A DNA stretch of 64,000 bases from Candidatus Curtissbacteria bacterium (lineage in GTDB: Bacteria; Patescibacteriota; Microgenomatia; Curtissbacterales; GWA2-41-24): the NCBI GenBank assembly GCA_024654445.1, contig JANLHP010000017.1:33009-97008 (forward strand). The letters run 5' to 3'. Positions within the stretch are counted from its first letter, which is position 1; each line of letters opens with the position of its first letter. The translations under genes were made by a program, and so were the position numbers. The notes under the pieces are model-generated. The model was given only the letters and a program-made list of their open reading frames with translations, had not been told where the DNA came from and did not search any database. Positions 6,265 through 25,114 of the stretch are shown here, piece after piece.

Positions 6265-6879
6265 ATGCCTAGACGCGATCTGCTGTACGCTGCTTCTGTT
6301 TCAATTCTCACGACTGTATTCTTATTTCCAACACTGATTAATACCGGTTCTCTGGACAAGTTGCCCTTGTCTCCGATTTTGATACTCGCTGCTTATCCGC
6401 TTTTAGCAACATTTGGGACTTTTGTTGCGTACTTTTTGGGTAAACGCCTCGCTATTCTGTGGCAATTTTCAAAGTTTGCATTGGTTGGAGTTTGCAACAC
6501 AGCAATTGATTTCGGAATACTTAATTTACTTATACTCGTCACTAATATTACGAGCGGCGTGAGAATCATTCCGCTTAATATAACTTCTTACTCGATTGCG
6601 CTTTTAAACAGCTATTTTTGGAACAAAAGGTGGGTTTTTAGTGCTAGTAAGGGTAGCTTTCTCGCATTTGTAGCCGTAACTTTAGTCGGGCTGGGTATCA
6701 ACACGGGGATTGTTTTTGCTTTGACTACGTTTGCTGATCCTATGTTTGGGCTAGATGAAACTTTGTGGGCGAATTTAGCTAAGGTTTTTGCAACAGTTAT
6801 TTCTCTTGTATGGAATTTTATGGGGTACCGTATAATCGTTTTTGGGTCTTCAAAAAAGCAGGCAGCAGTTTCTTCTTAA
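6265..6879 (+). CDS. GtrA family membrane protein (polysaccharide/lipid-linked sugar translocation) with N-terminal TM extension
   Basis: FALVGVCNTAIDFGILNLL, YSIALLNSYFWNKRWVF, VWNFMGYRIIVF - typical GtrA 4-TM core. Confidence 0.7.
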   Translation: MPRRDLLYAASVSILTTVFLFPTLINTGSLDKLPLSPILILAAYPLLATFGTFVAYFLGKRLAILWQFSKFALVGVCNTAIDFGILNLLILVTNITSGVRIIPLNITSYSIALLNSYFWNKRWVFSASKGSFLAFVAVTLVGLGINTGIVFALTTFADPMFGLDETLWANLAKVFATVISLVWNFMGYRIIVFGSSKKQAAVSS

Positions 6880-8087
6880 ACTACCTTTTTATTTCTCAAG
6901 AGTTTGTAGGAATTAAGTTTCTCGCTAACTAAAGCACCAGATCCTATAAGAACTACAAATAGGGTAACAAGCCAGCCAATTACAGGTATCGTTGTAAGAA
7001 TTCCGTAAATTAACAGACCTGCAATAAGAGCTAAATAGTTATTTTCTTTTCCTTGTGCAAATCTAAGAATTATTCTCCCAACCGCGATCGCGACGAATAA
7101 TTTTGCGAGGTAGAGGACAAATATAAAGTCGACAAGTAAGGCTAGAGCAATTGGGATGCCTACGATTGTAATTGTCAAAACAACCACAGCTAAAGGTGTC
7201 ACGACTAGCGTCAAGAGTCCAACGCCAAGATTTTTCAGAGGTCTTTCGACTACGCTGTCCACAGTCCTTTCCGTAAAGTTCGGCAGGAATTTAATGAACA
7301 GGAGGCCGATTATAAGAGCTGCCAAAAAGCTAATTGCTTTGAAGATCAAGAAGGCGGCGCCTAGAGCTTTTTCTGCATCTTGCTGACTTTGCCTTTGAGG
7401 TACATTTTTAACGGTAGAGCCAGTGACTTGTGCTCCTTGTTGGATTTGCGCATCTTTTTCGCTCCAGTAATTTACATCGCCCTTAACTTGAGCTTTTGAT
7501 GTTAAGGTTAACTGTCCTACGCCTGCAGTAATGTTGCTGCCAACCGTATTTCCGATTGTTGCGTCGCCAGACGCTAAGGTTATTCCTTTGCCAACTGGGG
7601 CAAAAAGACTAAAGCTTCCTGAAGCATTAACCACGCTACCTCCGATGTTTGCTGAATCGGTAAAATTAACTGCTCCTGCAGTGGTTGTTACGTTTCCCCC
7701 AATGTCACCTGAAATTATTACTTCCCCGCCAGCCGCTCGGACGTCATTTTTAACATTACCCATGATGTTAACGGAGCCTCCTGCAACCAGAAGGTCGCCG
7801 TTTACTGTGCCTTCAACGATAACGTTTCCACCAGCGGCGTATACGTCCCCATTAACGGTGCCTGCAATGGTAACTTTTTCTCCTGTTGCAAAATAATCAC
7901 CTTCTATCGTTTCTCCTTGAGGTAAAAGCGCAACTTCTTGATGTACCATGTTTGGCGCGGCAAGAGCCGGAGTAACGAGCGTAAACAATGCGATTACTGT
8001 TAAAAATATGGCTGCTATTTTGTTTCTTGTCATCTTTGTCGTCTCTTTCTCGTTCAGAATAGTCCTTTGATTTTTACTTGTCAACAC
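6876..8087 (-). CDS. Bactofilin-like beta-helix repeat protein with signal peptide and C-terminal multi-TM domain
   Basis: Repeats TVNGDVYAAGGNVIVEGTVNGDLLVAGGSVNIMGNVKNDVRAAGGEVIISGDIGGNV (GxVxGDxxxxGGxV periodicity); C-terminal 6 TM helices; overlaps gtrA stop. Confidence 0.5.
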   Translation of the reverse strand: MLTSKNQRTILNEKETTKMTRNKIAAIFLTVIALFTLVTPALAAPNMVHQEVALLPQGETIEGDYFATGEKVTIAGTVNGDVYAAGGNVIVEGTVNGDLLVAGGSVNIMGNVKNDVRAAGGEVIISGDIGGNVTTTAGAVNFTDSANIGGSVVNASGSFSLFAPVGKGITLASGDATIGNTVGSNITAGVGQLTLTSKAQVKGDVNYWSEKDAQIQQGAQVTGSTVKNVPQRQSQQDAEKALGAAFLIFKAISFLAALIIGLLFIKFLPNFTERTVDSVVERPLKNLGVGLLTLVVTPLAVVVLTITIVGIPIALALLVDFIFVLYLAKLFVAIAVGRIILRFAQGKENNYLALIAGLLIYGILTTIPVIGWLVTLFVVLIGSGALVSEKLNSYKLLRNKKVV

Positions 8088-8631
8088 TATTATTTAGATA
8101 GGCTGCGACTTTTTTCAAAGCCTTTGAGCGGTGCGAAATTTTGTTTTTCAATTCCTGCGGCATTTCGGAATAAGTTTGTTTGTAACCATTTGGGATAAAT
8201 ATCCTGTCGAAACCGAATCCTCCCACGCCTCTGTCTTTTTTGGTGATCGTACCGCTCACTTGGCTTTTGAAGATCTTGAGGTTCTTGCCATCGTAAATCG
8301 CGATAGCCGCTGTCACAGTTGCTTCGGGTTTTTTACCGGTTGTGAGTTTAGCAACTCCTTCGGTTCCTAAAGTTTCAAGAAAAAATTTAATAAAAGGTCC
8401 AGGAAGACCTCTTAATTCTTTTATGTCAACGCTTACATCTTCTACAAGTACGGGTTTTTGGATTTTTTCAAATGCGGACTTCGCTTTTGCCGTAATTACC
8501 TTGTCAATATTCATTGACTGGATTTCGGGAATGTTGATTTTTGAAACTTTGTGATTCGTTCCCAAAATCGCGTTTATTTCGGCAATTTTGTTTCTATTGC
8601 TGGTAACAACTACCAAGTCAGAGAGATTCAT
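8074..8631 (-). CDS. rdgB: Non-canonical purine NTP pyrophosphatase (RdgB/HAM1 family, dITP/XTPase)
   Basis: VVVTSNRNKIAE (TGNxxKxxE), FGFDRIFIP, SHRSKAL motifs. Confidence 0.8.
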   Translation of the reverse strand: MNLSDLVVVTSNRNKIAEINAILGTNHKVSKINIPEIQSMNIDKVITAKAKSAFEKIQKPVLVEDVSVDIKELRGLPGPFIKFFLETLGTEGVAKLTTGKKPEATVTAAIAIYDGKNLKIFKSQVSGTITKKDRGVGGFGFDRIFIPNGYKQTYSEMPQELKNKISHRSKALKKVAAYLNNSVDK

Positions 8632-9127
8632 AATTTAGAAACACCTCCACAAGCACAAAACAAGGAGTGTCTTGCTCTTCTAATGCACGCTCTGAGTGTC
8701 CTTGAACACTTAGACTCTGGCAATTATTTTGAAAATCAAGGATTTCGGTGACTCTGGACGGTAGCCTAGAATGCATTAACCTAATTTCAAAGAAAGTTTA
8801 CAAAAACGGGGACCAATTTTCAAGAAGCCAAAAGGAACTAAATTACCTAAAGCCAAAACTCAATTTTATCTCCCGCAGGAAGCAGAACCAAACCTCGGAT
8901 GGGCATCGCTAGTCCAGTAGTAGGGCAACCCCGGCCGACCGTACCACAAGCGCAGAAACGGAGCGCCGCCAGACTCAACTTGTGTGCCAGGTAGATCAAC
9001 ATAATGTTCTTTTAGTATATCGGGGTTGGAAATATAAAGGGCAATTCCATCTAAAATTGTTGCTCCTCTTTCATCGTCTTCGAAATTGAACGCAGATTAT
9101 ATAGCTACTATGGGTTACTTGTCAAGC

Positions 9128-10648
9128 TCATTCGTATTCTATTGTTGCTGGTGGTTTTTGGGTGATGTCGTAAACAACGCGATTGACCCCTCGAACTTCG
9201 TTGACGATTCGGCTGGAGATTTTTTCCAGAACCTCATGTGGAATTTTGGACCAATCGGCGGTCATAAAGTCTGTGGTGTCTACAGATCTAAGGGATACGA
9301 TATAGGAATAAGTGCGGCTATCACCCATTACGCCTACAGACTTGACAGGTAGAAGGGCTGCCAGTGATTGTCCTACCTTATTATATATGTCATGGAATTT
9401 AAGCTCTGAAATGAATATTTCATCGACTTCTCGCAGTATCGAAAGTCTCTCTTCTGTCACCTCACCTAGGACTCTAATCGCGAGGCCTGGTCCTGGAAAT
9501 GGATGGCGGTTTGTAAAATCGCGGCTAATGCCAAGCAGATTGCCTATTTTTCTTACTTCGTCTTTATAGAGGTCGCGTAATGGTTCGATGAGCGTGAGCT
9601 TTAATCCTGAAGGCAGCGTAACGTTGTGATGGCTTTTGATTTTGTCCGCGTGTTTAGATGTCTGAGCAGATTCAATTCGGTCAGGGTAAATTGTTCCCTG
9701 ACCTAAAAACTTAACATTGCCGATTTTCTTGGCTTCTTCTTCTAATATTTTAAAGTAGAGCTTGGCGATAACTTTCCTTTTTTCTTCTGGGTCACTTACG
9801 CCTTTTAACCCTTTGATGAACCTGCTACTTACGTCTGTTATTTTGAAATTCTTAAAGCCTACGGTTTTAATAACGTTTTTAAGGTCGGAAACGTCATAAT
9901 TCCTGAGCAAGCCGGTATTTATAAAAACCATATGAAGATTTTTGGGTACTGCTTCTTTTATGAGTATCGCCGCGACAAGAGAGTCTACTCCACCTGAGAT
10001 TGCCATCAGAACTTTTTCGTCGCCGATTTGGTTTTTGAGATCGGATACGATTTGTTCTTTTACTTTTTTGATTGTCCAATCACGATTGGCACCAGAAACA
10101 CCAAAAAGAAAATTGCTTAGGATTTCCTTACCTTTTGTTGTGTGAGAAACTTCTGTGTGGAATTGAATTCCAAAGAAATTATGTTTGAGATTTTGTATTG
10201 CAGCAAATTTGGCGCTTTGAGTGGATCCTATTGCTGTGAATCCTTGAGGCAGTTTGCTCACCTGGTCTCCATGAGAGAACCAAACAGTTTGTGGGCTTTT
10301 TAGGTTTTTAAACAGTGGAGATTTTGAAATTTTTAACTCGACCTTACCAAATTGTTTTTTGGTGTGCGGAACTACTTTACCCCTCAGTTGATATGCCATT
10401 AGTTGCTGGCCATAACATATACCTAAAATCGGCAACTTGAGTTTGTAAATTTTAGGATCGATTTTTGGCGCTCCTTTTTCGTAACAAGAGTAAGGGCTAC
10501 CGGAAAGTATAATTGCTTCGGGATTTATTTTTTTTATTTCGGTAGGAGATATTTCCGGTGAAACGAGTTCACTTTTAACATCTAGGTCTCTTATTCTTCT
10601 TGCAATAAGGTGGGCAAATTGCCCACCAAAGTTAACAACAATTACCAT
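9128..10648 (-). CDS. guaA: GMP synthase (glutamine-hydrolysing)
   Basis: GATase ICYGQQLM Cys, ATP-PPase P-loop ISGGVDSLV, conserved C-terminal dimerisation domain ...PPATIEYE; TGA stop. Confidence 0.95.
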   Translation of the reverse strand: MVIVVNFGGQFAHLIARRIRDLDVKSELVSPEISPTEIKKINPEAIILSGSPYSCYEKGAPKIDPKIYKLKLPILGICYGQQLMAYQLRGKVVPHTKKQFGKVELKISKSPLFKNLKSPQTVWFSHGDQVSKLPQGFTAIGSTQSAKFAAIQNLKHNFFGIQFHTEVSHTTKGKEILSNFLFGVSGANRDWTIKKVKEQIVSDLKNQIGDEKVLMAISGGVDSLVAAILIKEAVPKNLHMVFINTGLLRNYDVSDLKNVIKTVGFKNFKITDVSSRFIKGLKGVSDPEEKRKVIAKLYFKILEEEAKKIGNVKFLGQGTIYPDRIESAQTSKHADKIKSHHNVTLPSGLKLTLIEPLRDLYKDEVRKIGNLLGISRDFTNRHPFPGPGLAIRVLGEVTEERLSILREVDEIFISELKFHDIYNKVGQSLAALLPVKSVGVMGDSRTYSYIVSLRSVDTTDFMTADWSKIPHEVLEKISSRIVNEVRGVNRVVYDITQKPPATIEYE

Positions 10649-10653
10649 AGTCT

Positions 10654-11625
10654 TTAGATCAGCTTACTGAGCGCATCAACAATCCGTTTCTGGGGATCTT
10701 CTGTCGTGTCTATTTCTAATTTTTCGCCTGTTAACTTTTCGTAAACTTCTATATATCGTTTTGCGATTTTTATAATGAGGTCTGGGGGCATTTGTGGGAT
10801 TTTACCGCGTCCTACAAATCCTTGCTGGCTAAACCAAATTCGCATAAATTCTTTATCGTAATTTTCAACCTCTTGTCCCTTTTTAAACCTTTCTTTGTAA
10901 GTTTCTTTGCGCCAATATCTGCTGCTGTCGGGTGTATGAATTTCGTCTATTAGTGTTAACTTTCCTCTTTTGTCGAGACCGAATTCGTATTTTGTATCCG
11001 CAAGGATAAATCCGGCATTACCAGCAATTTTGGTTCCCCTTTCAAATAATTTCAGGGCTACTTTTTCGATTTGTTTCCAAATTGCAGGAGAAATTATTTT
11101 TTGCTTGAAGATTTCTTGTTTTGTGATTGGTTCATCGTGGCCTCCTTTACCTGTTGCTCTGGTCGTCGGGGTAAGTACGGGTTTTGGTAGTTTTTGATTT
11201 TTAATAAGCTTGTCAGGAAATTTAATTCCGTAAATGATTCTTTTTCCTTCTGAGTATTGCTTCCAAAGAGATGTGTCTGTTACCCCAGTGATGTATCCTC
11301 TCACGACAATTTCAATGGGTAGTGCTTGAGCTTCTGAAACTAGCATGACGTTTGGATCGATCACTCCGATCATGTGGTTTGGAATTATGTCTCTCGTTTC
11401 TTCGAACCAAAACTCCGAGAGCTTATTTAATACTGCGCCTCTAAATGGCACCAACCCTAAAACTCTGTCGAAAGCGGAGATTCTGTCGGTTGCAATTAAG
11501 ATTCGCAAGCCATTTCTGGTGTACCAATCGCGGACCTTACCACTGTTTCTCTTGCCGAGTTGAGGTACCTTTACTGTGCTTACCTCGCGGCCTATGTTAT
11601 TTTTGATTATGCTATCTGAAGTCAT
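10654..11625 (-). CDS. purC: Phosphoribosylaminoimidazole-succinocarboxamide synthase (SAICAR synthetase, long form)
   Basis: [16 protein letters not shown] motifs; 323 aa. Confidence 0.85.
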
Positions 11626-12140
11626 TTTGCTAGCTGTAAATATTTTTTATATCCTGAGTTTTCTAACTTTTTAGCTTTCTCTCCTACTGTCTTTTTCATT
11701 TTGGCTTTGTATCGAGTTAGCTTACTACTTAAATTTTTATTGTTTGTTGCCAGAATTTCGATCGCAAGGAGGGCCGCATTTGTCGAGCCATTGATGGCAA
11801 CTGTTGCAACAGGAATGCCTGGGGGCATTTGAGCTATTGATAAAAAAGAGTCGATGCCATCCATTGTTTTCGTTTTGATAGGGACGCCGATTACTGGAAG
11901 AGTAGTAATGGAAGCTGTCATTCCCGGTAGGTGGGCCGCGCCGCCCGCGCCGGCTATTATTACTTTAATGCCCTTTGATTTTGCGCTTCTTGCGAACTTG
12001 TACATTCTGTCCGGGGTTCTGTGTGCGGAAACCACGGTCAGCTCATAGCCTACGCCAAAATCATCGAGCACAGTAGCTGACTCTTTCATTATTTCCAGAT
12101 CCGAATCGCTGCCCATGATTATCGCTATTTCTTTTTTCAT
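11622..12140 (-). CDS. purE: N5-carboxyaminoimidazole ribonucleotide mutase
   Basis: [30 protein letters not shown] motifs. Confidence 0.9.
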
Positions 12141-13285
12141 ATTGTAATTAGTTTTCTTGCTTTTTGTGCTTTTGCCAGTGCCTCTTTTACATTTTCTCCA
12201 AGCGCGGTTACATGCCCCATTTTGCGTTCTTTTTTAGTCTGGGCTTTGCCGTAAATATGGACAAATACGTTTTCCAGTTTTTGAGCAGATTCGATACCTT
12301 TGGGCACAGCAGGAGAATTTCTTGTGCCCAAGATGTTGACCATGACGGCCGCGGGACTTGTCATTTTAATCGATTTTAAGGGTAATTTACAAACAGCTCT
12401 TACGTGGTGTTCAAACTGTGACGCGTTAGTTGCTTCTATGGTGTAGTGGCCGCTGTTGTGAACGCGGGGAGCAATTTCGTTAACAAGAACTTTGTTATTT
12501 TTTGTCAGGAACATCTCTATCGCGAAGACTCCATTGCCCTTCAACATTTTTGCCACTTTTCCGGTTATTATATTTGCCTGTTTTTTGACCGTGTCGGTCA
12601 CGCGAGCGGGGGCAATTACGATATGGCAGATGTCGTTTTTCTGAATTGTTTCCACAAGAGGATATATTTTGGTTGTTTTGCCGCTTTTGACGACTTGAAT
12701 TGCAAGTTCACTTTTAAAAGGGACTAGCTTTTCGACATAAAGGTCGCGAGTACCTAATTTTAAGAGAGCCTTTTTAATGTCTGACTCTTTGGCAAGCCTC
12801 GCGTTGCCCCGTCCGTCAAATCCGTGATGGCGCGCTTTTATAACGAGAGGAAAGCCGAACTTTTTCGCTGCGCGTTTTATATCATCTATTGTTTCGACAG
12901 ATAAAAAGTCTGGTACGGGTACATTGGCCTTTTTTAAGATTTGTTTTTGGAGATATTTATCTTGGATTATTTTAAGAGTTTTGGGTGAAGGGTGAATTGA
13001 TTTGCCGGCACCTTTAAGTTCCACGAGAGATTGGGCATGCGCCGACTCAATTTCGTATGTTAAAAAATCAACGAGACTTGCAAGTTTTTTAATCATCTTT
13101 GGGTCTTTGTAATTACCCACAACTTGTTTATCTGCAATTTGCCCGGCAGGGCTTTGGGGGGTGGGGTCCAAAACGACAGTTTTTATGTTTAGATTTTGGG
13201 CGGCTTGGACCAACATTCTGCCCAGTTGGCCTCCGCCGATTATCCCTAAGCTGCTTTTTTTATTTTTTGAAGTAATATTTCGCAT
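12137..13285 (-). CDS. purK: N5-carboxyaminoimidazole ribonucleotide synthase (ATP-grasp)
   Basis: [13 protein letters not shown]-terminus, ATP-grasp core; 4-nt overlap with purE. Confidence 0.85.
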
Positions 13286-14634
13286 TTTTCTTTTGCAAGT
13301 CCTATGTGGGTTTTATAATCAGAAAGTTTATCTATATCTTTGCTATTTAAATACTTTGTAATCTTCTCGTCTTTTTTTAAATTTTCAAAAAGGGGATTTG
13401 TTCCAAGCCGGTTATTGAACTCATAAGCGACAAGGGCGTGTTCGCGTAAAACTTCATGCATTTCTTGTCTGTCGGCGCCTCTTTTTGTCGATTCTAGTAA
13501 AATGAGCTCAATCGCGGCAAAGGGGCCGAAATTCTCCAAGTTTTTTTCAATATTTTTTTGGTTAATGACCAGGCCGCTTACAATTGATTTGGTTGATAAT
13601 AGAATTTCATTTGTTGCGAGAAATGCGTCAGGTAGAACTATTCTCCTGGATGCGGAATCGTCAAGGGTCCGCTCCAGTAGTGAATTTGCTGCATTGTCCC
13701 AGGAGACTTTCGTAAGAGATGCAACATATCTTGCGAGTGAACAAATTTTTTCTGCAGTTATTGGGTTTCTTTTAAATGGCATTGCGGAAGACCCTACCTG
13801 CTTCTTCCCGAATGGTTCCATCCACTCTCCAAATCCTGCGGATTGCATGATTCTTAAATCAAAAGCGAATTTGCTTGCGCTCTGCGCGATGGATGACAGC
13901 AAGCTTAAAATTAGAAAATCCAATTTTCTCGGGTATACTTGTCCGGTGACGTCAAACGCTTCAATTCCGAGTTCTGACATCACATCTTCCTCGAAATTTT
14001 TTGCCTTACTTCCAAGTAATGCTACATATGACGCATAAGTTCCAACTGCTCCTTTTGTTCCTTTGCCTTTAACGTTTTCTTTAACAAAGTTAAGTAGTTG
14101 TAGGTCGATTAAAAGGTCCTGAGCATAAAGTGTGAACCTGTAACCCAATGTTGTTGGCTCGGCTGGCTGCAGATGCGTGTAGGCCATACATACCAGCTCT
14201 TTATATTCGCTTATTTTTTTGGAAAATTCGGCAAGAGCTTGTTTTAATTCTGTTTCGATTATTTCCAAAGCAGAAAGTAGAATAATTGCATCTGCGTTGT
14301 CTTCTATGTCCTGCGATGTGGCGCCAAGATGGATTTTACCTCCACCAATTTTTGATTGAGCCGCGAATGTTTTAAGCTCGGCCATTAGATCATGTTTAAT
14401 TTCTGCTTCTATTTCGTGAGCTTTTTCTATGTCGATTTTTTGTGAATTGTCTCTTATATCCAAAAATTCTGCTTTTGTAAGAAGACCTGCTTTATGCTGA
14501 ACTCTGGCGATCGCCGTCCATACTTTGCGCCACGTTTTTCTTCTATTTATTTCGGAGAAAAGTTGCCGCATTTGGTCGCTGCCATAACGCCAGGAAAATG
14601 CGGATTGATATGTGTTGAAATTAATTTCTGTCAT
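13246..14634 (-). CDS. purB: Adenylosuccinate lyase
   Basis: Fumarate-lyase signature GSSAMPFKRNP; 462 aa; TAG stop followed after one codon by TAA. Confidence 0.9.
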   Translation of the reverse strand: MTEINFNTYQSAFSWRYGSDQMRQLFSEINRRKTWRKVWTAIARVQHKAGLLTKAEFLDIRDNSQKIDIEKAHEIEAEIKHDLMAELKTFAAQSKIGGGKIHLGATSQDIEDNADAIILLSALEIIETELKQALAEFSKKISEYKELVCMAYTHLQPAEPTTLGYRFTLYAQDLLIDLQLLNFVKENVKGKGTKGAVGTYASYVALLGSKAKNFEEDVMSELGIEAFDVTGQVYPRKLDFLILSLLSSIAQSASKFAFDLRIMQSAGFGEWMEPFGKKQVGSSAMPFKRNPITAEKICSLARYVASLTKVSWDNAANSLLERTLDDSASRRIVLPDAFLATNEILLSTKSIVSGLVINQKNIEKNLENFGPFAAIELILLESTKRGADRQEMHEVLREHALVAYEFNNRLGTNPLFENLKKDEKITKYLNSKDIDKLSDYKTHIGLAKEKCEILLQKIKKAA

Positions 14635-14748: not shown

Positions 14749-15864
14749 TTACGTTGTCACCTTCTTGAGTTTCCCGCTTCTGATTGCTGTTTTTATTTCC
14801 ATCGCTACGCGCCTCCCCATACTTATGCTTTGACCAAATAAATATCCACTGTAAGGAGTCGCGAAGATTCCGGGAGAACCTGGCATCCTAGGGGAAACGT
14901 CGAAAACAACTATTTCCTTTTTGGGTGGCCCTGGAGTAATGACGGATTGCAAACTGAACGGCCCAATGACCCCTGGGGGGTACATATTTTTTGCAGCCGC
15001 AACAAATTTTTCCCCGGCTTCAAATGCCCCTTCCAGCATTGATTCGAGAGTGGTAACTGCGATGTGTCCCGCTTCTTCGTATTTGATGTCGAAAAACTGT
15101 TGATCGTTAATGGATAATTGTTCGCTGGCCGGAAGTTTAAGAAACCCTTCAAGATTTGTTTGGCGTCTGGTGTCAGTTCCGATCAACTCAAGTCGATTTA
15201 AAATAGGGGAGTAGAAAAAATTAAAATTCACTTGAACGCCCAGAACGAATTCTTCAATCGTTGCAGCGTCTAAATCTTTTTTAGTTATTTTTCCTTCTTT
15301 AATTAATATCCTGGCTCTTTGCTGATATGAAGTGGGGGAGTTAGCTAAAAAGAAGGCTCTCTCGAAGCCTCTTTGCTTTTCGGGAACTTTAACAATTACT
15401 AATCTGTCGATCTCTTGCGGATTTTGATAGATCTTGGGAAAGCGAATAACAGCAGTTTTTAAAATGTCATATTGATTTCTTTCTTCTGTTCGCTCTTCGG
15501 CGCGGAGTAAAAACCTATTTCCAAATATTGGGATTTTAAAATCCTTCTCGATTGCGTCATAATCACCGATGTAAACCTCGAATGAGCGGTGGGGGATAAA
15601 AATTGCATTTTTGGCCTTTAGAATTTTCTGGAATCGGGGGTCTAAAATATCTTTAAACTTGTCGACATATAAAACTTCGTCCACACAGCCCGTAGGTCCT
15701 GAGCTTGCCGAAGGGCTTCTGCTAGTTGTCTTAAAGTACTTTGCGTAAGTCTTGTCTCTCCCCTCCTCTACTATTACAATAGTTGCCAACCCTTCGTCTT
15801 TAGCTCCTCGGCAGACGTCTAAAGCGCTATGGCTTCCTATGACTGCTACCGCTACCCTAGCCAT
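14749..15864 (-). CDS. PurP-like ATP-grasp protein (archaeal-type 5-formaminoimidazole-4-carboxamide ribonucleotide synthetase paralog, divergent)
   Basis: N-terminus VAVIGSHSALDV; IPHRSFEVYIG, FFYSP, SMGRRVAMEIK - same family as the ORF at 17216 but more divergent. Confidence 0.6.
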   Translation of the reverse strand: MARVAVAVIGSHSALDVCRGAKDEGLATIVIVEEGRDKTYAKYFKTTSRSPSASSGPTGCVDEVLYVDKFKDILDPRFQKILKAKNAIFIPHRSFEVYIGDYDAIEKDFKIPIFGNRFLLRAEERTEERNQYDILKTAVIRFPKIYQNPQEIDRLVIVKVPEKQRGFERAFFLANSPTSYQQRARILIKEGKITKKDLDAATIEEFVLGVQVNFNFFYSPILNRLELIGTDTRRQTNLEGFLKLPASEQLSINDQQFFDIKYEEAGHIAVTTLESMLEGAFEAGEKFVAAAKNMYPPGVIGPFSLQSVITPGPPKKEIVVFDVSPRMPGSPGIFATPYSGYLFGQSISMGRRVAMEIKTAIRSGKLKKVTT

Positions 15865-17137
15865 AGATTACCTCGTTTCTTGCGGGTCCGACACCGATAA
15901 AATCAACCGGCACACCCACAAATTCTTCAATCTTCTGGATATATTTTTTGGCGTTTTTGGGAAGGTCGGCAAATTTCCTGACTTTGGTGATGTCTTCTTG
16001 CCATCCCGGCAGAGTTTGATAAACCGGTTTACATTTTTCAAGTTTGTCCGCGTCGCCCGGAATGTATCCTACTTTTTTACCGTTTAGCAAGTAGCCTATG
16101 CAAATTTTAATTTCGTCAAATTCGGTTAAGATATCTAATTTTGTTACGGCAAGATGTTTTATGTTATTTACTTCACAAGCTGCTTTTAATAGGACGAGGT
16201 CCAGCCATCCAGGGTCTCTGACGCGGCCCGACGTTGTTCCCACTTCCCCACCCTTTTCTATAATTATTTTTCTTTCTTTGCCCTTTATTATTGTCGGCAT
16301 TGGGCCCGCGCCTACTCTTGTCGTATAGGCTTTTGTTATACCAATTGGGTGGTTAATAACAGAAGGGTTTAAATCGAACGACCGTAGAATCCCAACTAGC
16401 CCCGGGTTGGAAGAAGTAACGTACGGGTACGTACCCGCGTCGATATCAAGAAAATATCCTTGGGCGCCTTCGAATAGAACGTTTTGCTTGTTTTTAATCG
16501 CTTCATTTAATATTTCGTTGGTATCAGCAACATAAGGCTTAATGATTTTTGCGTAGTCGGTAAATTTTTGGTGAATTTCGCGGTAAGAAAGTTTTAGGTT
16601 GAAAAACTTATTTTGAACCGTGAGTTCTTCTTTTAATTTTTTAGCAAAATCGGCACTTACCAAGTCTTTAACCCGAAGACCAACTCTTTCGGTTCTGTCG
16701 GCGTATGCTGGGCCCACTCCCCTTTTCAGCGTTCCTAATTTGGAACTTCTCATTTGTTCTCGAAGCGCGTCGCGGAGCTTATGCCACGGCATAACTAAAG
16801 TTGCCCTATGATCGATTCTTAAATTTTTCCAAGAAACGCCAGCAGCTCTAAGTTGCTCCAATTCGTCGTCGATAAGCGATTCCAAATCGACCAAGACGTT
16901 TTTGCCAACTAAACATTTTGTTTTTGGGTTAAATATTCCGGAGGGCATTATATGAAGAGCAAAAGTGCCAAATTCGTTTTTGATCGTATGGCCTGTATTT
17001 GATCCGCCGTTAAATCTGGCAACAACGGCTGCCCTTTGTCCTAAATCGTCAATAAGCCGTCCTTTACCCGAGTCTCCCCAATCGACTCCGATTACGGCAG
17101 CAACACCTGACCAGTTTTTTAAATTATTACTTTTCAC
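15857..17137 (-). CDS. purA: Adenylosuccinate synthetase
   Basis: GVDWGDSGKGRLID P-loop, GGSNTGHTI, conserved C-terminus. Confidence 0.95.
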   Translation of the reverse strand: MKSNNLKNWSGVAAVIGVDWGDSGKGRLIDDLGQRAAVVARFNGGSNTGHTIKNEFGTFALHIMPSGIFNPKTKCLVGKNVLVDLESLIDDELEQLRAAGVSWKNLRIDHRATLVMPWHKLRDALREQMRSSKLGTLKRGVGPAYADRTERVGLRVKDLVSADFAKKLKEELTVQNKFFNLKLSYREIHQKFTDYAKIIKPYVADTNEILNEAIKNKQNVLFEGAQGYFLDIDAGTYPYVTSSNPGLVGILRSFDLNPSVINHPIGITKAYTTRVGAGPMPTIIKGKERKIIIEKGGEVGTTSGRVRDPGWLDLVLLKAACEVNNIKHLAVTKLDILTEFDEIKICIGYLLNGKKVGYIPGDADKLEKCKPVYQTLPGWQEDITKVRKFADLPKNAKKYIQKIEEFVGVPVDFIGVGPARNEVIYG

Positions 17138-17145
17138 TAAATTTT

Positions 17146-17208
17146 GTCATTCTGGAGACTGAAGGTCGATAGAATCTATTTGACCCTATCGCTTCGCTCC
17201 AGGGTGAC
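17146..17208. repeat. R2 palindromic repeat, copy B
   Basis: gtcattctggagactgaaggtcgatagaatcta...cgctccagggtgacgg. Confidence 0.8.
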
Positions 17209-17215
17209 GGTAATA

Positions 17216-18229
17216 TTAATCTAAAATTTTGTTTAACTTTTTTGTTCTAATCGCGTCTTTTATTTCCATTGCGATTCTTCTGCCTGTTGAAACGGGTTTA
17301 TCCCAGTAAAGGGCAGCGTATGGTGAACCATTTATAAATAAGTTAGTTCCAGCAACTATTCGGCAGGAGATTTCTATTATAGAAAATTTTTGCTCCGGAG
17401 TGATAATCGTCTCAAGACAAAATGGGCCCCATATTCCCTTTTTCATTAATTTTTGCGAAGTTGCCACAACTCTTTCCCCCATTTCGAACGCTTCTGCAAG
17501 AAGCGACTCTCGCAGAGTTAACGGTGAGTTTCCAACGACGACGAACGACGGTTCTATTCCAAGACCTGTTTGGTTTTGGACTGGGATTCGCCCTAGAGAG
17601 TCTACGTTAGACTCGTATCTTTTGTCTATTGATAAAATCTCGAGTTCTTTTGATATTGGGGAATAAAAATAATGAATATAAAGAGGAACGCCGATGACGT
17701 ACTCTTGGACGATAAACCTTTGTGGTTTAAACCCTTTTAGACGCCTTAGTAACTCTTTTTCGTTTTTTGCAAAAAAGTACCCTTCGCCTCCCGCTGCCCC
17801 AAAAGCTTTAACAATTACCGGGCTGTCTATCTTGTCTCCTTTTTTATAACGCTTTGGGACTGGAATGTCTGATTGTATTAGCCACTCTCTTTGCATTTTG
17901 CGGTCTGATTCCCAGTCTAAAACTTCTTTATTGCCAAAATAAGGAACTTTCATTTTTTTGTTTTCGTCTATACCCAGATAAGCGACAAAAGATCCGTGAG
18001 GAATTATGATGCAGTTTTCTTTTATTAAAGTTTTTTCTACTTGTGGAAATTCCGCGTATGTGGGGATTTCTATTATCTTGTCGATGAAGTTAAAGCGTTT
18101 GTAGAGGTCTAGTCTGTTTGAGGTCGCGACCAGAACTGTTTTGAATTTTTCGTCGTGTGCGCCTTTTAAAATTTGGAGAGCAGAGTGGGAACCGAGAGTT
18201 GCTATTTTGTAGGATTTTCGTCCCGCCAT
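17216..18229 (-). CDS. purP: 5-formaminoimidazole-4-carboxamide-1-beta-D-ribofuranosyl 5'-monophosphate synthetase (archaeal-type, formate/ATP-dependent)
   Basis: Near-collinear to recalled archaeal PurP: IATLGSHSALQILKGA, YKRF, IPHGSFVAY, VPYFGN, LDWESDR, IHYFYSP, DKRYESN, GPFCLE, GRRIAMEIK. Confidence 0.8.
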   Translation of the reverse strand: MAGRKSYKIATLGSHSALQILKGAHDEKFKTVLVATSNRLDLYKRFNFIDKIIEIPTYAEFPQVEKTLIKENCIIIPHGSFVAYLGIDENKKMKVPYFGNKEVLDWESDRKMQREWLIQSDIPVPKRYKKGDKIDSPVIVKAFGAAGGEGYFFAKNEKELLRRLKGFKPQRFIVQEYVIGVPLYIHYFYSPISKELEILSIDKRYESNVDSLGRIPVQNQTGLGIEPSFVVVGNSPLTLRESLLAEAFEMGERVVATSQKLMKKGIWGPFCLETIITPEQKFSIIEISCRIVAGTNLFINGSPYAALYWDKPVSTGRRIAMEIKDAIRTKKLNKILD

Positions 18230-18253: not shown

Positions 18254-19735
18254 CTAAATTGCAAAAAAGGCGGCGGCTAGAACAAGGAGGATATAAAGCA
18301 GAGACCAGGGGATAATTTTTTTAATGATGTGCCTTTCCTTTCCTTTTAAGTCGACTGCTGTTTGGGCGGCAATAATGTTTGGGATTGAAATCATATTTCC
18401 TGCTGTTGCGCCTAGAAGCTGCAATGAAAGGATAATGGAAATATTTATACCTGCTTGTTCTGCGGCATGAGCTTGTGCAGGGCCGAAAAGTAAGTTTGAG
18501 ACCGTTGCGCTTCCCGCGATAAATGCGCCGAATGCTCCTATAAATGGCGACAAAAGCGGCAGTAGGGGTGTCTCTAAGTTTTTAAAGGCTTGGGTCGCTA
18601 GCTGGCTGTTGACCATTACTTGCATTAGCCCCACAACTAAAAAAATTATTGTTGCAATATAGGGTATTTTGACGAAAGCTTCTTTTGCGCCTTTAAAGAC
18701 GTCTCTTAAAGTTAAGCTTGATACAGCAATAATGACGACTGCCGATATCAAAAATATAGTTCCGGGATTAAAAAGGACAAAAGTATGAGAAATGTTCTCG
18801 TTAATTTCTGCCGTTAACCTCAGGGGTATAAGTTTCGCAATTATCAAGAGTGAAACAAGTAAAGCGTAAGGCATTAAAGCTTTAGTCGGCGAAATCCTCA
18901 CTTTGGGTTCTGATGGATCTTTAATTTTGAAGTCATTATTGAATTTAAACAGTCCTAATTTTAGGGCTAAAAGAACAACCGCCGTTCCGATGGTGGCTCC
19001 CGCAATTGATGGAAATTCCAACCCCAGATATAAACCAAAATAATAAGGAATAACAAAACAGAGTCCTGAAAATATGGCAAAGGGCGAAGCTTTTATAAAA
19101 AATTGCCACACTGGTTTCTTTAATGCATAAGTAAGAATTGCCAGTACCATAAGAGGCACAAAAACTCCAACTATTGCTCCTAACTCAACAGTGTTTTGGG
19201 CTATTTCTTGCATATTAAAATTATGAAAACCTATTTTAATTGGAGTTCCTACCGCACCGAAAGTAACAGGTGCGCTGTTTGCAACTAGTGCGATAACCAC
19301 TGCCCAAATCGGTTTTATTCCTGTTCTTAATAAAAGATACGCAACGATTAGTGCCGGGATTCCAAAGCCGGCTGTGCTTTCCAGAAACGCTCCAAAAAAC
19401 CACGCCAATAAAATTGTTTGTACTCGGATGTCTGGTGATATTTTATGCAGGTATGTTTCGAGGGAAGAAATTACGTCCGCTTTTTGCATTAAATATAAAA
19501 AGGTGAGAGCACCGAAAACAATTAACACAATGTCGAGCGAGACAAAAGCGCCTTTTAAGAGGCTTGAAAGAATAACTTGATAGGACGTATGTAGATAAAA
19601 CGTGCTTAAGATTATGGCAGCAAACAAACTTATGAGTGCTGATATTTTTAGCTTGTTTTTGAAGAGTAAAAGGCCACCTACAAGTATTAATATCGGCAGA
19701 AGCGACAAAAAAGTTTGCACAAAATATTTTAACAA
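18254..19735 (-). CDS. L-lactate permease family (LctP) transporter
   Basis: WFFGAFLESTAGFGIPALIVAYLL...ANSAPVTFGAVGTPI and C-terminal LLFGPAQAHAAEQAGI...GNMISIPNIIAA align to the E. coli LldP conserved blocks. Confidence 0.75.
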   Translation of the reverse strand: MLKYFVQTFLSLLPILILVGGLLLFKNKLKISALISLFAAIILSTFYLHTSYQVILSSLLKGAFVSLDIVLIVFGALTFLYLMQKADVISSLETYLHKISPDIRVQTILLAWFFGAFLESTAGFGIPALIVAYLLLRTGIKPIWAVVIALVANSAPVTFGAVGTPIKIGFHNFNMQEIAQNTVELGAIVGVFVPLMVLAILTYALKKPVWQFFIKASPFAIFSGLCFVIPYYFGLYLGLEFPSIAGATIGTAVVLLALKLGLFKFNNDFKIKDPSEPKVRISPTKALMPYALLVSLLIIAKLIPLRLTAEINENISHTFVLFNPGTIFLISAVVIIAVSSLTLRDVFKGAKEAFVKIPYIATIIFLVVGLMQVMVNSQLATQAFKNLETPLLPLLSPFIGAFGAFIAGSATVSNLLFGPAQAHAAEQAGINISIILSLQLLGATAGNMISIPNIIAAQTAVDLKGKERHIIKKIIPWSLLYILLVLAAAFFAI

Positions 19736-19825: not shown

Positions 19826-20944
19826 TCATCTTAAATCTAGTGATTCGGATTTGAATGTAAGATTTTTGGGCAGAATTTGGACTTCGCGCGGGCCCTTTTT
19901 GACATAGCCTGCATTGTAAATTTTTAACTTTTGAGACTTTGCTGCAGTTTCTACTTTATTCAAATCTTTTGGATTTATAAAAATACCGAAGCCTGCTCCC
20001 ATATTAAAATTTCCATACATATCTTTCTCGCTTATTTGACCTTGCTCTTGCATGAACGTGAATTCTTCCTGAGGAGTTGGGATCATTTCGATTACATATG
20101 ATAATTTTTTTGGATGGCGCATAATTTTTCGCCAACCGTGTCCGGTAATGTTGACCATGTAATGAATGTCTACTTTTTGATCGAACAATTCGTCGATAAA
20201 TTTAGCATATATAATCGTTGGTCTTCTTAGGGCTTCGCCAAACATTTTGCCGCTTGGCATAGGTGTTGCTAGACCTTGAGGTAATTTTTTCGCAATTCTT
20301 CTTGCGAGCGTTAAACCGTTGGCGTGAATGCCTGACGATTCCAACAGGATTATTAAATCCCCAGCTCCTAATTTTTCCCCAAGCACAAGTCTTGATTTTG
20401 GTCTGATTACGCCAGTGGCAGCACCTGCAAGTTCGATTGTGTTTTTGTGAACGATATTGGTTAAGGTGGGCGTCTCTCCCCCGCCCCAGGTTGCCCCAGC
20501 CAGATTACAAGCACGCTTCCATCCTAAGAGCAATTCTCGGACTCTTTTTTTATCACTGAACCAGGAAGAATGACCCACCGCAAAATATGCATTAATGACT
20601 TCGGGCTTTGCGCCAACGGTAATTAAATCGTTTACTATCATTGCTACTGTGTCCTGCGAAATTACACTGTAGTAACTCTTACCGGTAATTTTGATCATCT
20701 CATCTTCTACAATATTTTTAGTACCGAGTCCTTCTATAACAAATGCGCGGTAATGATCGCCGCAATCGTAGACATAGGATGATTCTCCTCTTGATTCGGG
20801 TACTTCTTTTTCTTTTAGTCTCAGGAGGTTTTTGGCAGTAGATTTTGCCAGTTTTTGCGCACTCTTTTTGACAGGATCCATTGCTCTATAAGAGACTCCT
20901 GATTTTTCGTAGATGTCTCGCGGTGTCATATTTGTTTTTGCCAT
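19826..20944 (-). CDS. purM: Phosphoribosylformylglycinamidine cyclo-ligase (AIR synthetase), with ~60-aa divergent N-terminal extension
   Basis: EGLGTK, DTVAMIVNDLITVGAKP, GGETPTL, LIILLESSGIHANGLTLARR, ITGHGW, MYGNFNMGAGF collinear with E. coli PurM blocks; TGA stop. Confidence 0.75.
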   Translation of the reverse strand: MAKTNMTPRDIYEKSGVSYRAMDPVKKSAQKLAKSTAKNLLRLKEKEVPESRGESSYVYDCGDHYRAFVIEGLGTKNIVEDEMIKITGKSYYSVISQDTVAMIVNDLITVGAKPEVINAYFAVGHSSWFSDKKRVRELLLGWKRACNLAGATWGGGETPTLTNIVHKNTIELAGAATGVIRPKSRLVLGEKLGAGDLIILLESSGIHANGLTLARRIAKKLPQGLATPMPSGKMFGEALRRPTIIYAKFIDELFDQKVDIHYMVNITGHGWRKIMRHPKKLSYVIEMIPTPQEEFTFMQEQGQISEKDMYGNFNMGAGFGIFINPKDLNKVETAAKSQKLKIYNAGYVKKGPREVQILPKNLTFKSESLDLR

Positions 20945-21030: not shown

Positions 21031-21861
21031 CTATAGAAATCCCGCGGCAAACGTATCCCCTGCCCCCGTTGTATCTACGATATTGTTCACTTTATGTCTG
21101 CCCGTTAAGAACTGCTTTTTGTTTGTGGTAATTAAAGCGCCTTTTTTGGAAAGAGTGCAAACTACAATTTTTGGACCAAATTTAAGTAAATAATTGCTTC
21201 CTGCTCTTGGAGGTTTTCCGGTTAATTTTTTAAGTTCATGCTCATTTAAGAAAATAATATCGCTCTTTTTAATAATGGGTTTAATTTTAGTTTTAGCTCT
21301 TTGAATATAAAAGCCGCTAGGATTAAAACTAATCATTGGGCCTTTTACGCTTTCTAAAAAATCTAGGGTTTTATTAATACCTTTTTCTACATCGACAACA
21401 AGTGGCGTAATGTGAACAATCTTTGCTTTGTTGATAAAGTTGTAATCTAAACTTGAAAAAAAGTCTCTTTCGTGTTTATTTTCTTCTGACAAGAATGTTC
21501 TTTGTTTGCCTACTCTTGTTAGGATACAAGGGCACATCGGTGTTTTGCCGGCTCGTAAGATTTTTGTTTTTTCTAGATTGATATTTTTTATCCAATAATC
21601 GCCGTCTTCATCTTTGCCAATTACTCCAAGATATGCGCTTTTAGTTTTTAACGTGTATAGCGCTGATAGTGTATTTGGCGCAATTCCCCCAGGACTTTTG
21701 GTTGTGGGTTTAAGATGTTTTAAGATCTCTTCCCTGGTTATTTTCTTTTCGGAGAAAAGGAAATCGTCTTCGGGGTTTAAGTTGATGCTTTTTAAAAAGT
21801 CGTTATTTGTTTCGAAAAAATAATCGGTGTAGGCAGATCCGATTCCAACTATGTCTGCCAT
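21031..21861 (-). CDS. PfkB-family carbohydrate/nucleoside kinase (ribokinase/adenosine kinase-like); ORF ends at in-frame TAG 21031-21033 immediately after DTTGAGDTFAAGFL; homologous C-terminal helix continues in frame to 20926
   Basis: Gly-rich N-terminus, anion-hole motif DTTGAGD; readthrough frame encodes GILKDKSLKWSAEFANKLASKSLGNFGQS matching the conserved PfkB C-terminus (..EAIRFAxAAAAxxVxxxGAQ). Confidence 0.7.
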   Translation of the reverse strand: MADIVGIGSAYTDYFFETNNDFLKSINLNPEDDFLFSEKKITREEILKHLKPTTKSPGGIAPNTLSALYTLKTKSAYLGVIGKDEDGDYWIKNINLEKTKILRAGKTPMCPCILTRVGKQRTFLSEENKHERDFFSSLDYNFINKAKIVHITPLVVDVEKGINKTLDFLESVKGPMISFNPSGFYIQRAKTKIKPIIKKSDIIFLNEHELKKLTGKPPRAGSNYLLKFGPKIVVCTLSKKGALITTNKKQFLTGRHKVNNIVDTTGAGDTFAAGFL

Positions 21862-21882: not shown

Positions 21883-22254
21883 CTAATCACTACTATTAGT
21901 TGTGAAAGCATATGCTATGACATTTGAGTGGCTAACTCTTACCATTAAGTCTGGGTTGTCTCTATGATGAATAACGACCATTTCCTCTCCTGTTACTACT
22001 ACTCTGTCGGGCTCAACATATTCCCAATTTGCAAAAGTTTTGTCGGGCGATTTAACAACAACAAGATGATCAAAGTAGCCACCAAAAAGTATGCCGACTT
22101 TGCGGTCTATTTGGTTACAAATAACTGTGATTTCTGCAGGGGAAAATATGTCTAGTACTTTTATCTCGCCTCTGTTCAAAGTGAAATCTCTTTCAGCTCT
22201 GTTTTGACCGATGAGTCTGTCTACTTCTACAGGGGCCATATTAATTTTTAACAA
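21883..22254 (-). CDS. Hypothetical protein (123 aa)
   Basis: Intact ORF, co-directional, tight spacing; no recognisable motif. Confidence 0.4.
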   Translation of the reverse strand: MLKINMAPVEVDRLIGQNRAERDFTLNRGEIKVLDIFSPAEITVICNQIDRKVGILFGGYFDHLVVVKSPDKTFANWEYVEPDRVVVTGEEMVVIHHRDNPDLMVRVSHSNVIAYAFTTNSSD

Positions 22255-24097: not shown

Positions 24098-25114
24098 CTA
24101 TTTGAAGTATATATCAGCTTTGTGTGTGATCGCAATTTTTTCATCTAGCTTATTTTCCCAACCTTTTTGACTGATATCGAAGAGTTCGATTGATTTAAAC
24201 TTATTAAACCAGGTTTTTTGTCGGCGGATAAGGCGGTGTAGGTCTCCTTTTGCAAGGTCGACTGATTCTTCTTTCGACGTTTTCCCTAAAATATAGTCTG
24301 CAAGACGCCTGTATTCCAAACCAAGCGAGTTAATCCATTCAGGGCTAATCCCGCCTTTTATTAGACTTTGAATTTCTTCAATCATTCCATGCTCAAGACG
24401 AGCCTTGAAGGATGCGTCGGCTCTTTTAAAAAGAAAATTATTAGGCGCGGTGAGACCGATGATGAGCACTTTTTCTGTCATCCTGGAGCGTAGTGGAACG
24501 GAGCGATGGGATCTAGATTCTATCGTGGTCGATGCCACTCCAGAATGACGACTTTTGCTTGGCGTCTCTATGGATACCTCTATAGCGCGGATGAGCCGGC
24601 GTGGATTTTTTCTGTCGGATTCGTTCATGGACTTTGCCTTTTGAGGATTTAGTTTTCCTAACTTTAGATAAAGCTCCTGCCTTGATAACTTTTCCAGTTT
24701 TGCGCGTAGTTTTTGGTCAGCTTTTATTCCTAGCGTGTCCATACCGTCCACAAGTGCTTTGATATAAAAACCTGTTCCCCCAACAACAATTGGCATTTTT
24801 TTCAGTTCAGTGATCTGAATTACTGAACTATTGGCGAATTTTAAAAAGTCTGCGACCGTGAATTGTTTGCCAGGTTCTATTAGATCGAAACCGCGGATTT
24901 TTACTCCGTCAACGATCCAATAACCGTTGTGTTTTTCAACCTTAGATTTAAAGCTTACTTTACCGGTTCCGATATCTAGACCTTTATAAACCTGTCGGGA
25001 GTCGGCAGAGATTAATTCACCGTTTGCACATTTGGCTAGTTTTATTCCAAGATCAGTTTTGCCGGTTGCCGTCGGACCATATAGTACCAACATCGTAGAT
25101 TTGCCAGTTTTCAT
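24098..25114 (-). CDS. miaA: tRNA dimethylallyltransferase; carries an in-frame 74-nt insertion of the R2 palindromic repeat
   Basis: P-loop GPTATGKT, SADSRQVYKGLDIGTGK; repeat at 24477-24550 translated as RHSGVASTTIESRSHRSVPLRSRMT between RAIEVSIETPSKS and EKVLIIGLTAPNN. Confidence 0.85.
   Translation of the reverse strand: MKTGKSTMLVLYGPTATGKTDLGIKLAKCANGELISADSRQVYKGLDIGTGKVSFKSKVEKHNGYWIVDGVKIRGFDLIEPGKQFTVADFLKFANSSVIQITELKKMPIVVGGTGFYIKALVDGMDTLGIKADQKLRAKLEKLSRQELYLKLGKLNPQKAKSMNESDRKNPRRLIRAIEVSIETPSKSRHSGVASTTIESRSHRSVPLRSRMTEKVLIIGLTAPNNFLFKRADASFKARLEHGMIEEIQSLIKGGISPEWINSLGLEYRRLADYILGKTSKEESVDLAKGDLHRLIRRQKTWFNKFKSIELFDISQKGWENKLDEKIAITHKADIYFK
24477..24550. repeat. R2 palindromic repeat, copy C (inverted relative to A/B), inside the miaA CDS in frame
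   Basis: gtcatcctggagcg...tagattctatcg...ctccagaatgacg. Confidence 0.8.

Follow-up and report, generated by a model that had tools for sequence, protein, structure and literature searches.

Do bacteria carry PurP, the formate-dependent synthetase of formyl-5-aminoimidazole-4-carboxamide ribonucleotide (FAICAR) that has hitherto been treated as an archaeal signature gene, and what would two copies of it do in a bacterial purine operon? The question is raised by a 64-kb stretch of contig JANLHP010000017.1 (assembly GCA_024654445.1), which as a whole is called the window here. Its host in NCBI is a metagenome-assembled genome (MAG) of Candidatus Curtissbacteria bacterium, from the Microgenomates, part of the candidate phyla radiation (CPR, or Patescibacteria); the organism is a groundwater bacterium with a very small genome. 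The original prediction, made from the sequence alone, placed two archaeal-type PurP paralogs in this stretch, on both sides of purA. Our analysis confirms an archaeal-type PurP paralog pair in a bacterial purine operon. The two genes are referred to as PurP_B and PurP_A:

17216-18229, minus strand: PurP_B, of PurP II (cluster Ib) type, 337 amino acids, DUF1246 plus DUF1297
14749-15864, minus strand: PurP_A, of PurP III (cluster II) type, 371 amino acids, DUF1246 plus DUF1297, with a fold match

Both open reading frames (ORFs) contain the two Pfam domains at full length and in order (DUF1246, E=2e-41 and 3e-41; DUF1297, E=3e-64 and 3e-69), and the only significant PDB matches of either are three PurP entries. 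For PurP_B the best of these is Pyrococcus furiosus PF1517 (2R84), with 362 bits and end to end; the proposed collinearity of this ORF with archaeal PurP holds, as all the motifs quoted for it are found in the 337-residue translation and both ORFs lie at the positions given above. PurP_A is most similar to the PurP of Methanocaldococcus jannaschii (2R7K, 242 bits). Its AlphaFold2 model (predicted local distance difference test, pLDDT, 84.4; predicted template modelling score, pTM, 0.86) matches 2R7K/L/M at E~3e-35 with template modelling (TM) scores of 0.78-0.81, and other ATP-grasp enzymes only at ~1e-9; an additional, low-confidence insertion is located at residues ~47-60. The model of PurP_B is also confident (pLDDT 81.8). 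The two proteins are 30% identical to each other; PurP_A had been proposed as the more divergent member of the same family. A RimK/LysX-type or other ATP-grasp identity, which the original prediction had named as the finding that would speak against it, is ruled out by fold and hidden Markov model evidence, the best matches being PurPs. Both genes are already annotated in NCBI, PurP_A as 'DUF1297 domain-containing protein' and PurP_B as 'formate--phosphoribosylaminoimidazolecarboxamide ligase'; what is new is their bacterial occurrence, relative to a survey of 2019 that found the groups in archaea only.

Archaeal PurPs fall into four groups. Group I is represented by M. jannaschii MJ0136, the only PurP shown to be active as a FAICAR synthetase. 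Group II (cluster Ib) includes PF1517, which binds ATP and 5-aminoimidazole-4-carboxamide ribonucleotide (AICAR) and is inactive in vitro; group III (cluster II) includes PF0421, which is inactive in vitro as well, and its members always occur together with a group II protein. Group IV is TK0431 (PDB 2PBZ). According to Brown et al. (2011), whose M. jannaschii numbering is used here, the formyl contacts His27 and Arg314 are kept in all PurP-like proteins, Asn258, which contacts the AICAR carboxamide, is always His in cluster II, and the (K/R)GG(K/R)G P-loop (161-165) becomes in cluster II a Gly-poor, basic loop that is two residues longer.

We aligned both window proteins with 161 CPR homologues and 62 non-CPR representatives of the family; trees were built by neighbour joining (NJ) with simple distances. 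At the diagnostic positions PurP_B has His15, Ser80, Asn234, Ser242 and Arg290, with the loop GAAGGEG (residues ~143-149), and PurP_A has His12, Ser94, His267, Ser275 and Arg326, with the loop KVPEKQRGFERAFF, two residues longer. The cluster II state is seen in 83/83 CPR A sequences and the cluster I state in 78/78 CPR B sequences; position 258 is His in every one of the former and Asn in every one of the latter. The equivalents of His27 and Arg314 are invariant in all 83 A and 78 B sequences, and in the PurP_A family the residues contacting the AICAR 5'-phosphate (Ser94, Ser266) and the formyl group are invariant too. The loop region of PurP III comprises 17 residues versus 15 and on average contains 0.7 Gly and 4.2 Lys+Arg. 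The loop of PurP_B keeps the archaeal length and all four glycines (GAAGGxG); in the CPR B variants listed, Ala replaces the first basic residue, and the second is Glu in the window, Lys in most of these variants and His or Asn in some. The rule that His goes with the long loop and Asn with the Gly-rich loop is true of 61 of the 62 non-CPR representatives.

The NJ trees split a I/II clade (2R7K, 2R84 and PurP_B) from the PurP_A clade at 100% bootstrap, and PurP_B groups with PF1517 inside the former. Further signatures of the PurP_A clade are PHRSF, EER..NQY with a 2-residue insertion, D.R.QTN, FD.S.R.PG.P and a 2-residue deletion before PY. Its two indels fit those by which Cruz et al. (2019) set group III apart from groups I, II and IV, and it is unlike group IV, with only 89 bits to 2PBZ. 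The nearest named relatives of PurP_A are 'DUF1297' proteins of Micrarchaeota and Aenigmarchaeota (DPANN archaea); in the PurP II clade the named relative is from Nitrosocosmicus. Neither window protein belongs to group I, as PurP_B groups with PF1517 and PurP_A is outside the I/II clade. From these diagnostics, the NJ split and the indels, the pair is assigned to PurP II plus PurP III, the standard archaeal configuration and not an arbitrary duplication; for PurP_A the class follows from the published diagnostics and from exclusion of the remaining groups, the tree being one without a named cluster II sequence from a cultured archaeon.

Concerning the known members, PurP_B resembles PF1517 (2R84-2R87) in length (337 vs 334 amino acids), in Asn258, the Gly-rich loop, His27/Arg314 and Ser94/Ser266, and in the purine gene context with a constant cluster II partner. 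It differs in its bacterial CPR host, in the Ala at the first basic position of the CPR loop and the Glu at the second in the window, and in that many relatives have PurP_B in one operon with purH and purN. PurP_A and PF0421, a PurP III without a solved structure, have in common His258, the longer, Gly-poor and basic loop, His27, Arg314, Ser94 and Ser266; strict co-occurrence with PurP II and the two group III indels are also traits of archaeal PurP III, from which PurP_A differs by its bacterial host and the insertion at ~47-60. MJ0136 has the same fold and domain pair as both ORFs and is the basis of the chemistry presumed for them; unlike the window pair, PurP I works by itself, is present once per genome and is paired with PurO.

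The distribution of the pair was examined by a scan which took one genome per species. A total of 195 relatives of PurP_A were confirmed, and the best 80 are all from Microgenomates lineages (Curtiss-, Davies-, Gottesman-, Roizman-, Woese- or Levybacteria, or Patescibacteria). The whole PurP family amounts to 546 clusters at 50% identity among 1.84 billion proteins. Among the 1,403 complete genomes of Cruz et al. (2019), PurP II was found in 62 archaea and no bacteria, and PurP III in 61 archaea and no bacteria. In the literature we found no report of PurP in CPR, Patescibacteria, Curtissbacteria, Microgenomates or any bacterium, nor one made via DUF1297. The CPR A sequences are monophyletic with 97% bootstrap and the CPR B sequences with 72% (NJ). 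Since the family is otherwise reported from archaea only, cluster Ib and cluster II are thought to be older than archaeal diversification, and each CPR paralog forms one clade, the most economical reading of the sequences would be a single ancient transfer of the pair from archaea to CPR. The horizontal acquisition first suggested by the setting of the pair in a bacterial purine cluster is thus still the best reading.

Ratios of non-synonymous to synonymous substitution rates (dN/dS) were taken from close pairs, the least saturated included, as dS is saturated in most pairs; they are ~0.02-0.15 for PurP_A, PurP_B and purB alike. Neither paralog is decaying, and both are under purifying selection as purB is. 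The PurP II and III pair is a stable, selected trait of this CPR class, conserved in at least 195 Microgenomates species genomes and in most cases translationally coupled.

The gene neighbourhood was compared in a set of 83 loci (the window, L001 and L002, and 80 genome loci), with ORFs clustered into families; L083, L084 and L085 were examined beyond the 83-locus purH count given below. Both PurP genes are present in 79/83 loci, and the remaining four are cut by contig ends. PurP_A follows PurP_B directly in 52 loci, with a gap of -8 to +4 nt in 31 of these. Elsewhere only purA and/or purH are found between the two, and in L085 also a phosphatase gene. The order PurP_B-purA-PurP_A is typical of the Curtissbacteria clade. 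Downstream of PurP_A, purB follows in 77/83 loci, purE in 74 and purC in 68; the upstream genes in relatives are purF, purN, purD, purL and purQ. The pair is thus shown to be associated with the genes of steps 8-10 (purB, purH) and with purA.

The window itself has the co-directional minus-strand order pfkB-purM-lctP-PurP_B-purA-PurP_A-purB-purK-purE-purC-guaA-ham1. The features other than the two PurP genes are as follows; ORF starts are longest-ORF calls, so that intergenic gaps are approximate:

21031-21861, minus strand: pfkB-family kinase, at the head of the cluster
19826-20944, minus strand: purM (TIGR00878, 198 bits, under the cut-off of 236; same family as the purM of relatives)
18254-19735, minus strand: LctP-family monocarboxylate permease, between purM and PurP_B (TIGR00795, 262 bits, under the cut-off)
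17138-17215, no strand: spacer of 78 bp between PurP_B and purA, the site of purH in sister lineages
15857-17137, minus strand: purA, adenylosuccinate synthase of the bacterial long type (PF00709, E=2e-152; NF002223, 483 bits)
13246-14634, minus strand: purB, adenylosuccinate lyase (TIGR00928, 407 bits)
12137-13285, minus strand: purK (TIGR01161, 411 bits)
11622-12140, minus strand: purE, class I (TIGR01162, 219 bits)
10654-11625, minus strand: purC (NF009251, 404 bits)
9128-10648, minus strand: guaA, fused, bacterial type (NF000848, 691 bits)
8074-8631, minus strand: ham1/rdgB

The profiles bear out that the pair flanks purA in a bacterial purine cluster, with guaA, purC, purE, purK, purB, purA and purM all recognised. 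The stop of purA and the start of PurP_A overlap by 8 nt, and the product of purB is AICAR, the presumed substrate of PurP. Genes for purF, purD, purN, purL, purQ and prs were not detectable in the 64 kb by tblastn, and no purT was seen in the window. The pfkB gene is directly followed by purM here; relatives L011 and L018 have pfkB-purL-purQ-purM. The early half of the purine pathway is moved or lost in the window genome, and purM, purK, purE, purC, purB and the PurP pair are intact.

A mis-assembled or mis-binned archaeal fragment in a bacterial contig would also produce an archaeal-type pair, and CPR and DPANN archaea, the latter being the source of the nearest named PurP_A relatives, do have common habitats and size fractions. 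However, the two genes are interleaved on one strand with bacterial-type purA, guaA and purK/purE, with overlapping stop and start codons. The GC content of the cluster (0.41-0.42) is equal to that of the flanking DNA, and the host is a bacterium because RecA, RecX, RNase Y, MiaA, MiaB, EF-Tu, EF-G and a single-chain beta-prime subunit are encoded in the same window. The same arrangement recurs in more than 80 independent assemblies from many studies, by which an assembly artefact is refuted; we give it a negligible chance.

Concerning PurH, the bifunctional enzyme of steps 9 and 10, a family of 510 amino acids present in 35/83 loci is bona fide PurH (NF002049, 523 bits vs a cut-off of 402) and contains MGS and AICARFT_IMPCHas domains. 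In Daviesbacteria purH stands straight after PurP_A, and in the Levybacteria-type loci L050, L080, L084 and L085 between PurP_B and PurP_A. In L058 and L083 it is found between PurP_B and purA (PurP_B-purH-purA-PurP_A). L058 branches beside the Curtissbacteria clade, and L083 has the upstream synteny of the window (RecA-RecX-RNase Y-MiaA-AI-2E transporter-PurP_B) plus purH; from this placement and synteny, the Curtissbacteria order PurP_B-78 bp-purA-PurP_A is read as derived, purH having been lost from the module. As had been noted, there is no purH in the window (none found by tblastn). A search with the PurH of L058 placed no match on the large Curtissbacteria contigs (268,154, 978,144, 975,962 and 1,080,257 bp, and others), the matches listed reaching only down to 49% identity. 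Daviesbacteria PurH, ~40% identical to the L058 query, is below the reach of that listing. No PurO or MGS match that could mark a hidden inosine monophosphate (IMP) cyclohydrolase was found in the unannotated window ORFs 6876-8087, 25053-26696, 21883-22254, 2056-3504 and 3525-5000, nor in the small ORFs of L001.

The claim that the pair replaces PurH is weakened: the window is without purH, which is lost from its module, but full purH is encoded in the same operon in 35/83 loci, often between the PurP genes. The proposed folate-independent rationale is weakened too, as purN and purH are both present in relatives. PurN (Formyl_trans_N) heads the operon in the Curtissbacteria relatives L001 and L019 and is encoded in at least 12 other loci. 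Two fusions were also observed, a purN::purD of 640 amino acids (L083:18865-20787) and a purF::purN of 708 amino acids (L085:1782-3908). PurP in a genome is not to be taken as evidence for 'no PurH' or 'no folate'.

The purN genes also bear on the suggested role of the second paralog as a formate-dependent glycinamide ribonucleotide (GAR) formyltransferase substituting for PurT or PurN, with a wholly folate-independent pathway. PurP_A is an ATP-grasp protein like PurT, the window itself has neither purN nor purT, and a fully formate-based pathway would explain two extra ligases in streamlined genomes. Because purN is encoded in genomes of the L001/L019 type, the paralog is not needed as a GAR formyltransferase there, and further purN genes are found in the other loci named above, fused in L083 and L085. 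The paralog shows no variation in the residues that contact the AICAR 5'-phosphate and the formyl group. In archaea, PurP III accompanies PurP II regardless of PurT or PurN: it stands alongside PurT in Pyrococcus and Sulfolobales, and archaea without PurN and PurT are mostly without PurP III. The suggestion is not supported by this evidence, and we consider it very improbable.

The explanation that we favour, and hold to be probable without being secure, is that the two genes are an orthologous II/III pair which was acquired once from archaea by a Microgenomates ancestor, inherited vertically and jointly responsible for a formate-dependent step 9. The ancestor of the Microgenomates branch would have acquired PurP II and PurP III in one event, and the pair would then have been inherited vertically inside the purine operon. 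PurP II and PurP III would work as one unit on AICAR. PurP II, an ATP-grasp ligase with a P-loop, would convert formate and ATP to formyl phosphate and AICAR to FAICAR; PurP_B is accordingly presumed to be the catalytic AICAR formyl ligase that uses formate and ATP. PurP III would be a P-loop-less partner subunit that still binds the AICAR/FAICAR nucleotide, and its strongly basic loop might compensate for the PurP_B loop within the complex. The pair would thus provide a formate-dependent step 9 alongside the folate-dependent transformylase of PurH. In genomes with PurH, the cyclohydrolase domain of that enzyme would carry the synthesis on to IMP; in the window lineage a cyclohydrolase may be kept elsewhere, or the pair may cover both steps. 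Archaeal PurP II and III always co-occur, the separate assays of PF1517 and PF0421 were negative, and Cruz et al. (2019) proposed a II/III hetero-hexamer. Formation of the same product by two routes has an analogy in the PurN/PurT duality of Escherichia coli, to which PurH (folate) and the PurP pair (formate plus ATP) in Daviesbacteria, Levybacteria and related operons may be compared; that duality concerns step 3 and not step 9, the families are different and PurT is a single protein.

Several points weigh against this explanation. Neither ORF reaches any NCBIfam PurP equivalog cut-off (400 vs 580 for PurP_B, 289 vs 556 for the other ORF). The loop of PurP_B has AGGEG instead of (K/R)GG(K/R)G. 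The sister groups of the CPR clades are unstable in the NJ trees. For PurP II and III no biochemical activity has so far been demonstrated in any case (PF1517 and PF0421 are inactive). Finally, relatives encode purN and full purH, so that all canonical steps are covered and a formate route looks redundant in genomes of ~1 Mb.

The apparent redundancy is also the starting point for a role outside steps 9 and 10, such as recycling or detoxification of AICAR/ZMP or action on another aminoimidazole-type nucleotide, with the operon serving co-regulation only. All ten canonical steps are encoded in relatives, the P. furiosus pair was negative when assayed in vitro for FAICAR synthetase, and Korarchaeum has the pair and purB without the rest of the pathway. 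The window likewise keeps the pair with no purF, purD, purN, purL or purQ within 64 kb, and phosphatase genes recur beside PurP_A. On the other side, the contact residues for AICAR and the formyl group are kept, PF1517 binds ATP and AICAR, extracts of S. solfataricus incorporate formate as they turn ZMP into IMP, and the genes are embedded among purB, purH and purA. We regard such a role as unlikely.

A different solution would be that PurP III is itself the missing IMP cyclohydrolase, with PurP II formylating AICAR and PurP III cyclising FAICAR, so that the pair fully replaces PurH in lineages like Curtissbacteria, Crenarchaeota and Pyrococcus. PurP III keeps the formyl (His, Arg) and nucleotide-phosphate contacts and loses the ATP P-loop, and its change of the carboxamide Asn to His, a plausible acid/base residue, is found in 83/83 sequences. 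Also, purH is lost from the module in the window lineage, and among the matches listed on the large Curtissbacteria contigs there is no PurH at least 49% identical to that of L058. Brown et al. (2011) raised the same idea for archaea, where the IMP cyclohydrolase of Crenarchaeota and Thermococcales was still unidentified in 2019. Against this, the same authors called the phyletic pattern imperfect, PurP III is under equally strong selection beside a full PurH and is kept in archaea with PurO, PurJ or PurH, and the PurH search is too shallow to prove absence, Daviesbacteria PurH being only ~40% identical to the query. The ATP-grasp fold is not known to have any cyclohydrolase chemistry. A cyclohydrolase function of PurP III is therefore doubtful. 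We are similarly sceptical that Curtissbacteria are without any purH, purO and purJ and that the pair alone would take AICAR to IMP, with PurP III as cyclohydrolase or obligatory activating subunit; if true, this would fill the same gap in Crenarchaeota, Thaumarchaeota and Pyrococcus.

The pair adds to the list of archaeal-type enzymes in CPR bacteria. The function of PurP II and III and the nature of the crenarchaeal and Thermococcales IMP cyclohydrolase have been questions since 2008-2011 and were still open in 2019, and the bacterial pair offers a tractable system for them: CPR proteins presumably work at moderate temperature, and genomes of ~1 Mb provide natural operon variants with purH between the PurP genes, after them or deleted.

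Some further observations were made on the loci and on the window. The Microgenomates purine operon is also found in many GTDB representative records (L004, L005, L012, L021, L022, L027, L031-L034 and many more) that are entitled 'MAG TPA_asm: uncultured Gammaproteobacteria bacterium'. As these records nest within the clades of Curtiss- and Daviesbacteria, their titles look like placeholders or wrong labels. Phosphatase genes (Cof-type HAD-IIB, HAD-IA and His_Phos_1) recur beside PurP_A or purH inside the operons: family f23 in L023, L029, L048, L056, L058 and L063, L083:13838-14584, L085:11548-12192, and family f13 in 16 loci. They may act on nucleotides or sugar phosphates and have a link to the module.

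The pfkB-family kinase at 21031-21861, which is also found in L011 and L018, weakly resembles ribose-1-phosphate and nucleoside kinases of archaea and may thus represent a further nucleotide-salvage enzyme of archaeal type in this lineage. The LctP-family permease at 18254-19735 (lactate/glycolate type) is found at this site only in the window genome and is missing there from the 82 other loci. That it neighbours a ligase presumed to use formate might point to import of monocarboxylates; a part in the conserved module is not supported.

At the other end of the cluster, a perfect sigma-70 consensus (TTGACA-18-TATAAT) is located at 9096-9125 on the minus strand, immediately past the stop of guaA; it occurs once in the window, with 0.01 expected. 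The gap that follows before ham1 (8632-9095, ~465 nt) is without a convincing ORF, an Rfam match or excess structure (z +1.4), and is an insertion specific to the window genome because guaA and ham1 overlap in relative L001. Concerning riboswitches and non-coding RNAs in the cluster, an Rfam scan gave only a tRNA-Pro, elsewhere in the window. Terminator and promoter scans did not resolve the operon structure, terminator-like sites being at chance level. Two ORFs on the minus strand, 6876-8087 (403 amino acids) and 25053-26696 (547 amino acids), matched nothing in Pfam or NCBIfam, even with E=0.1 allowed; the former is kept in five related loci (family f27).

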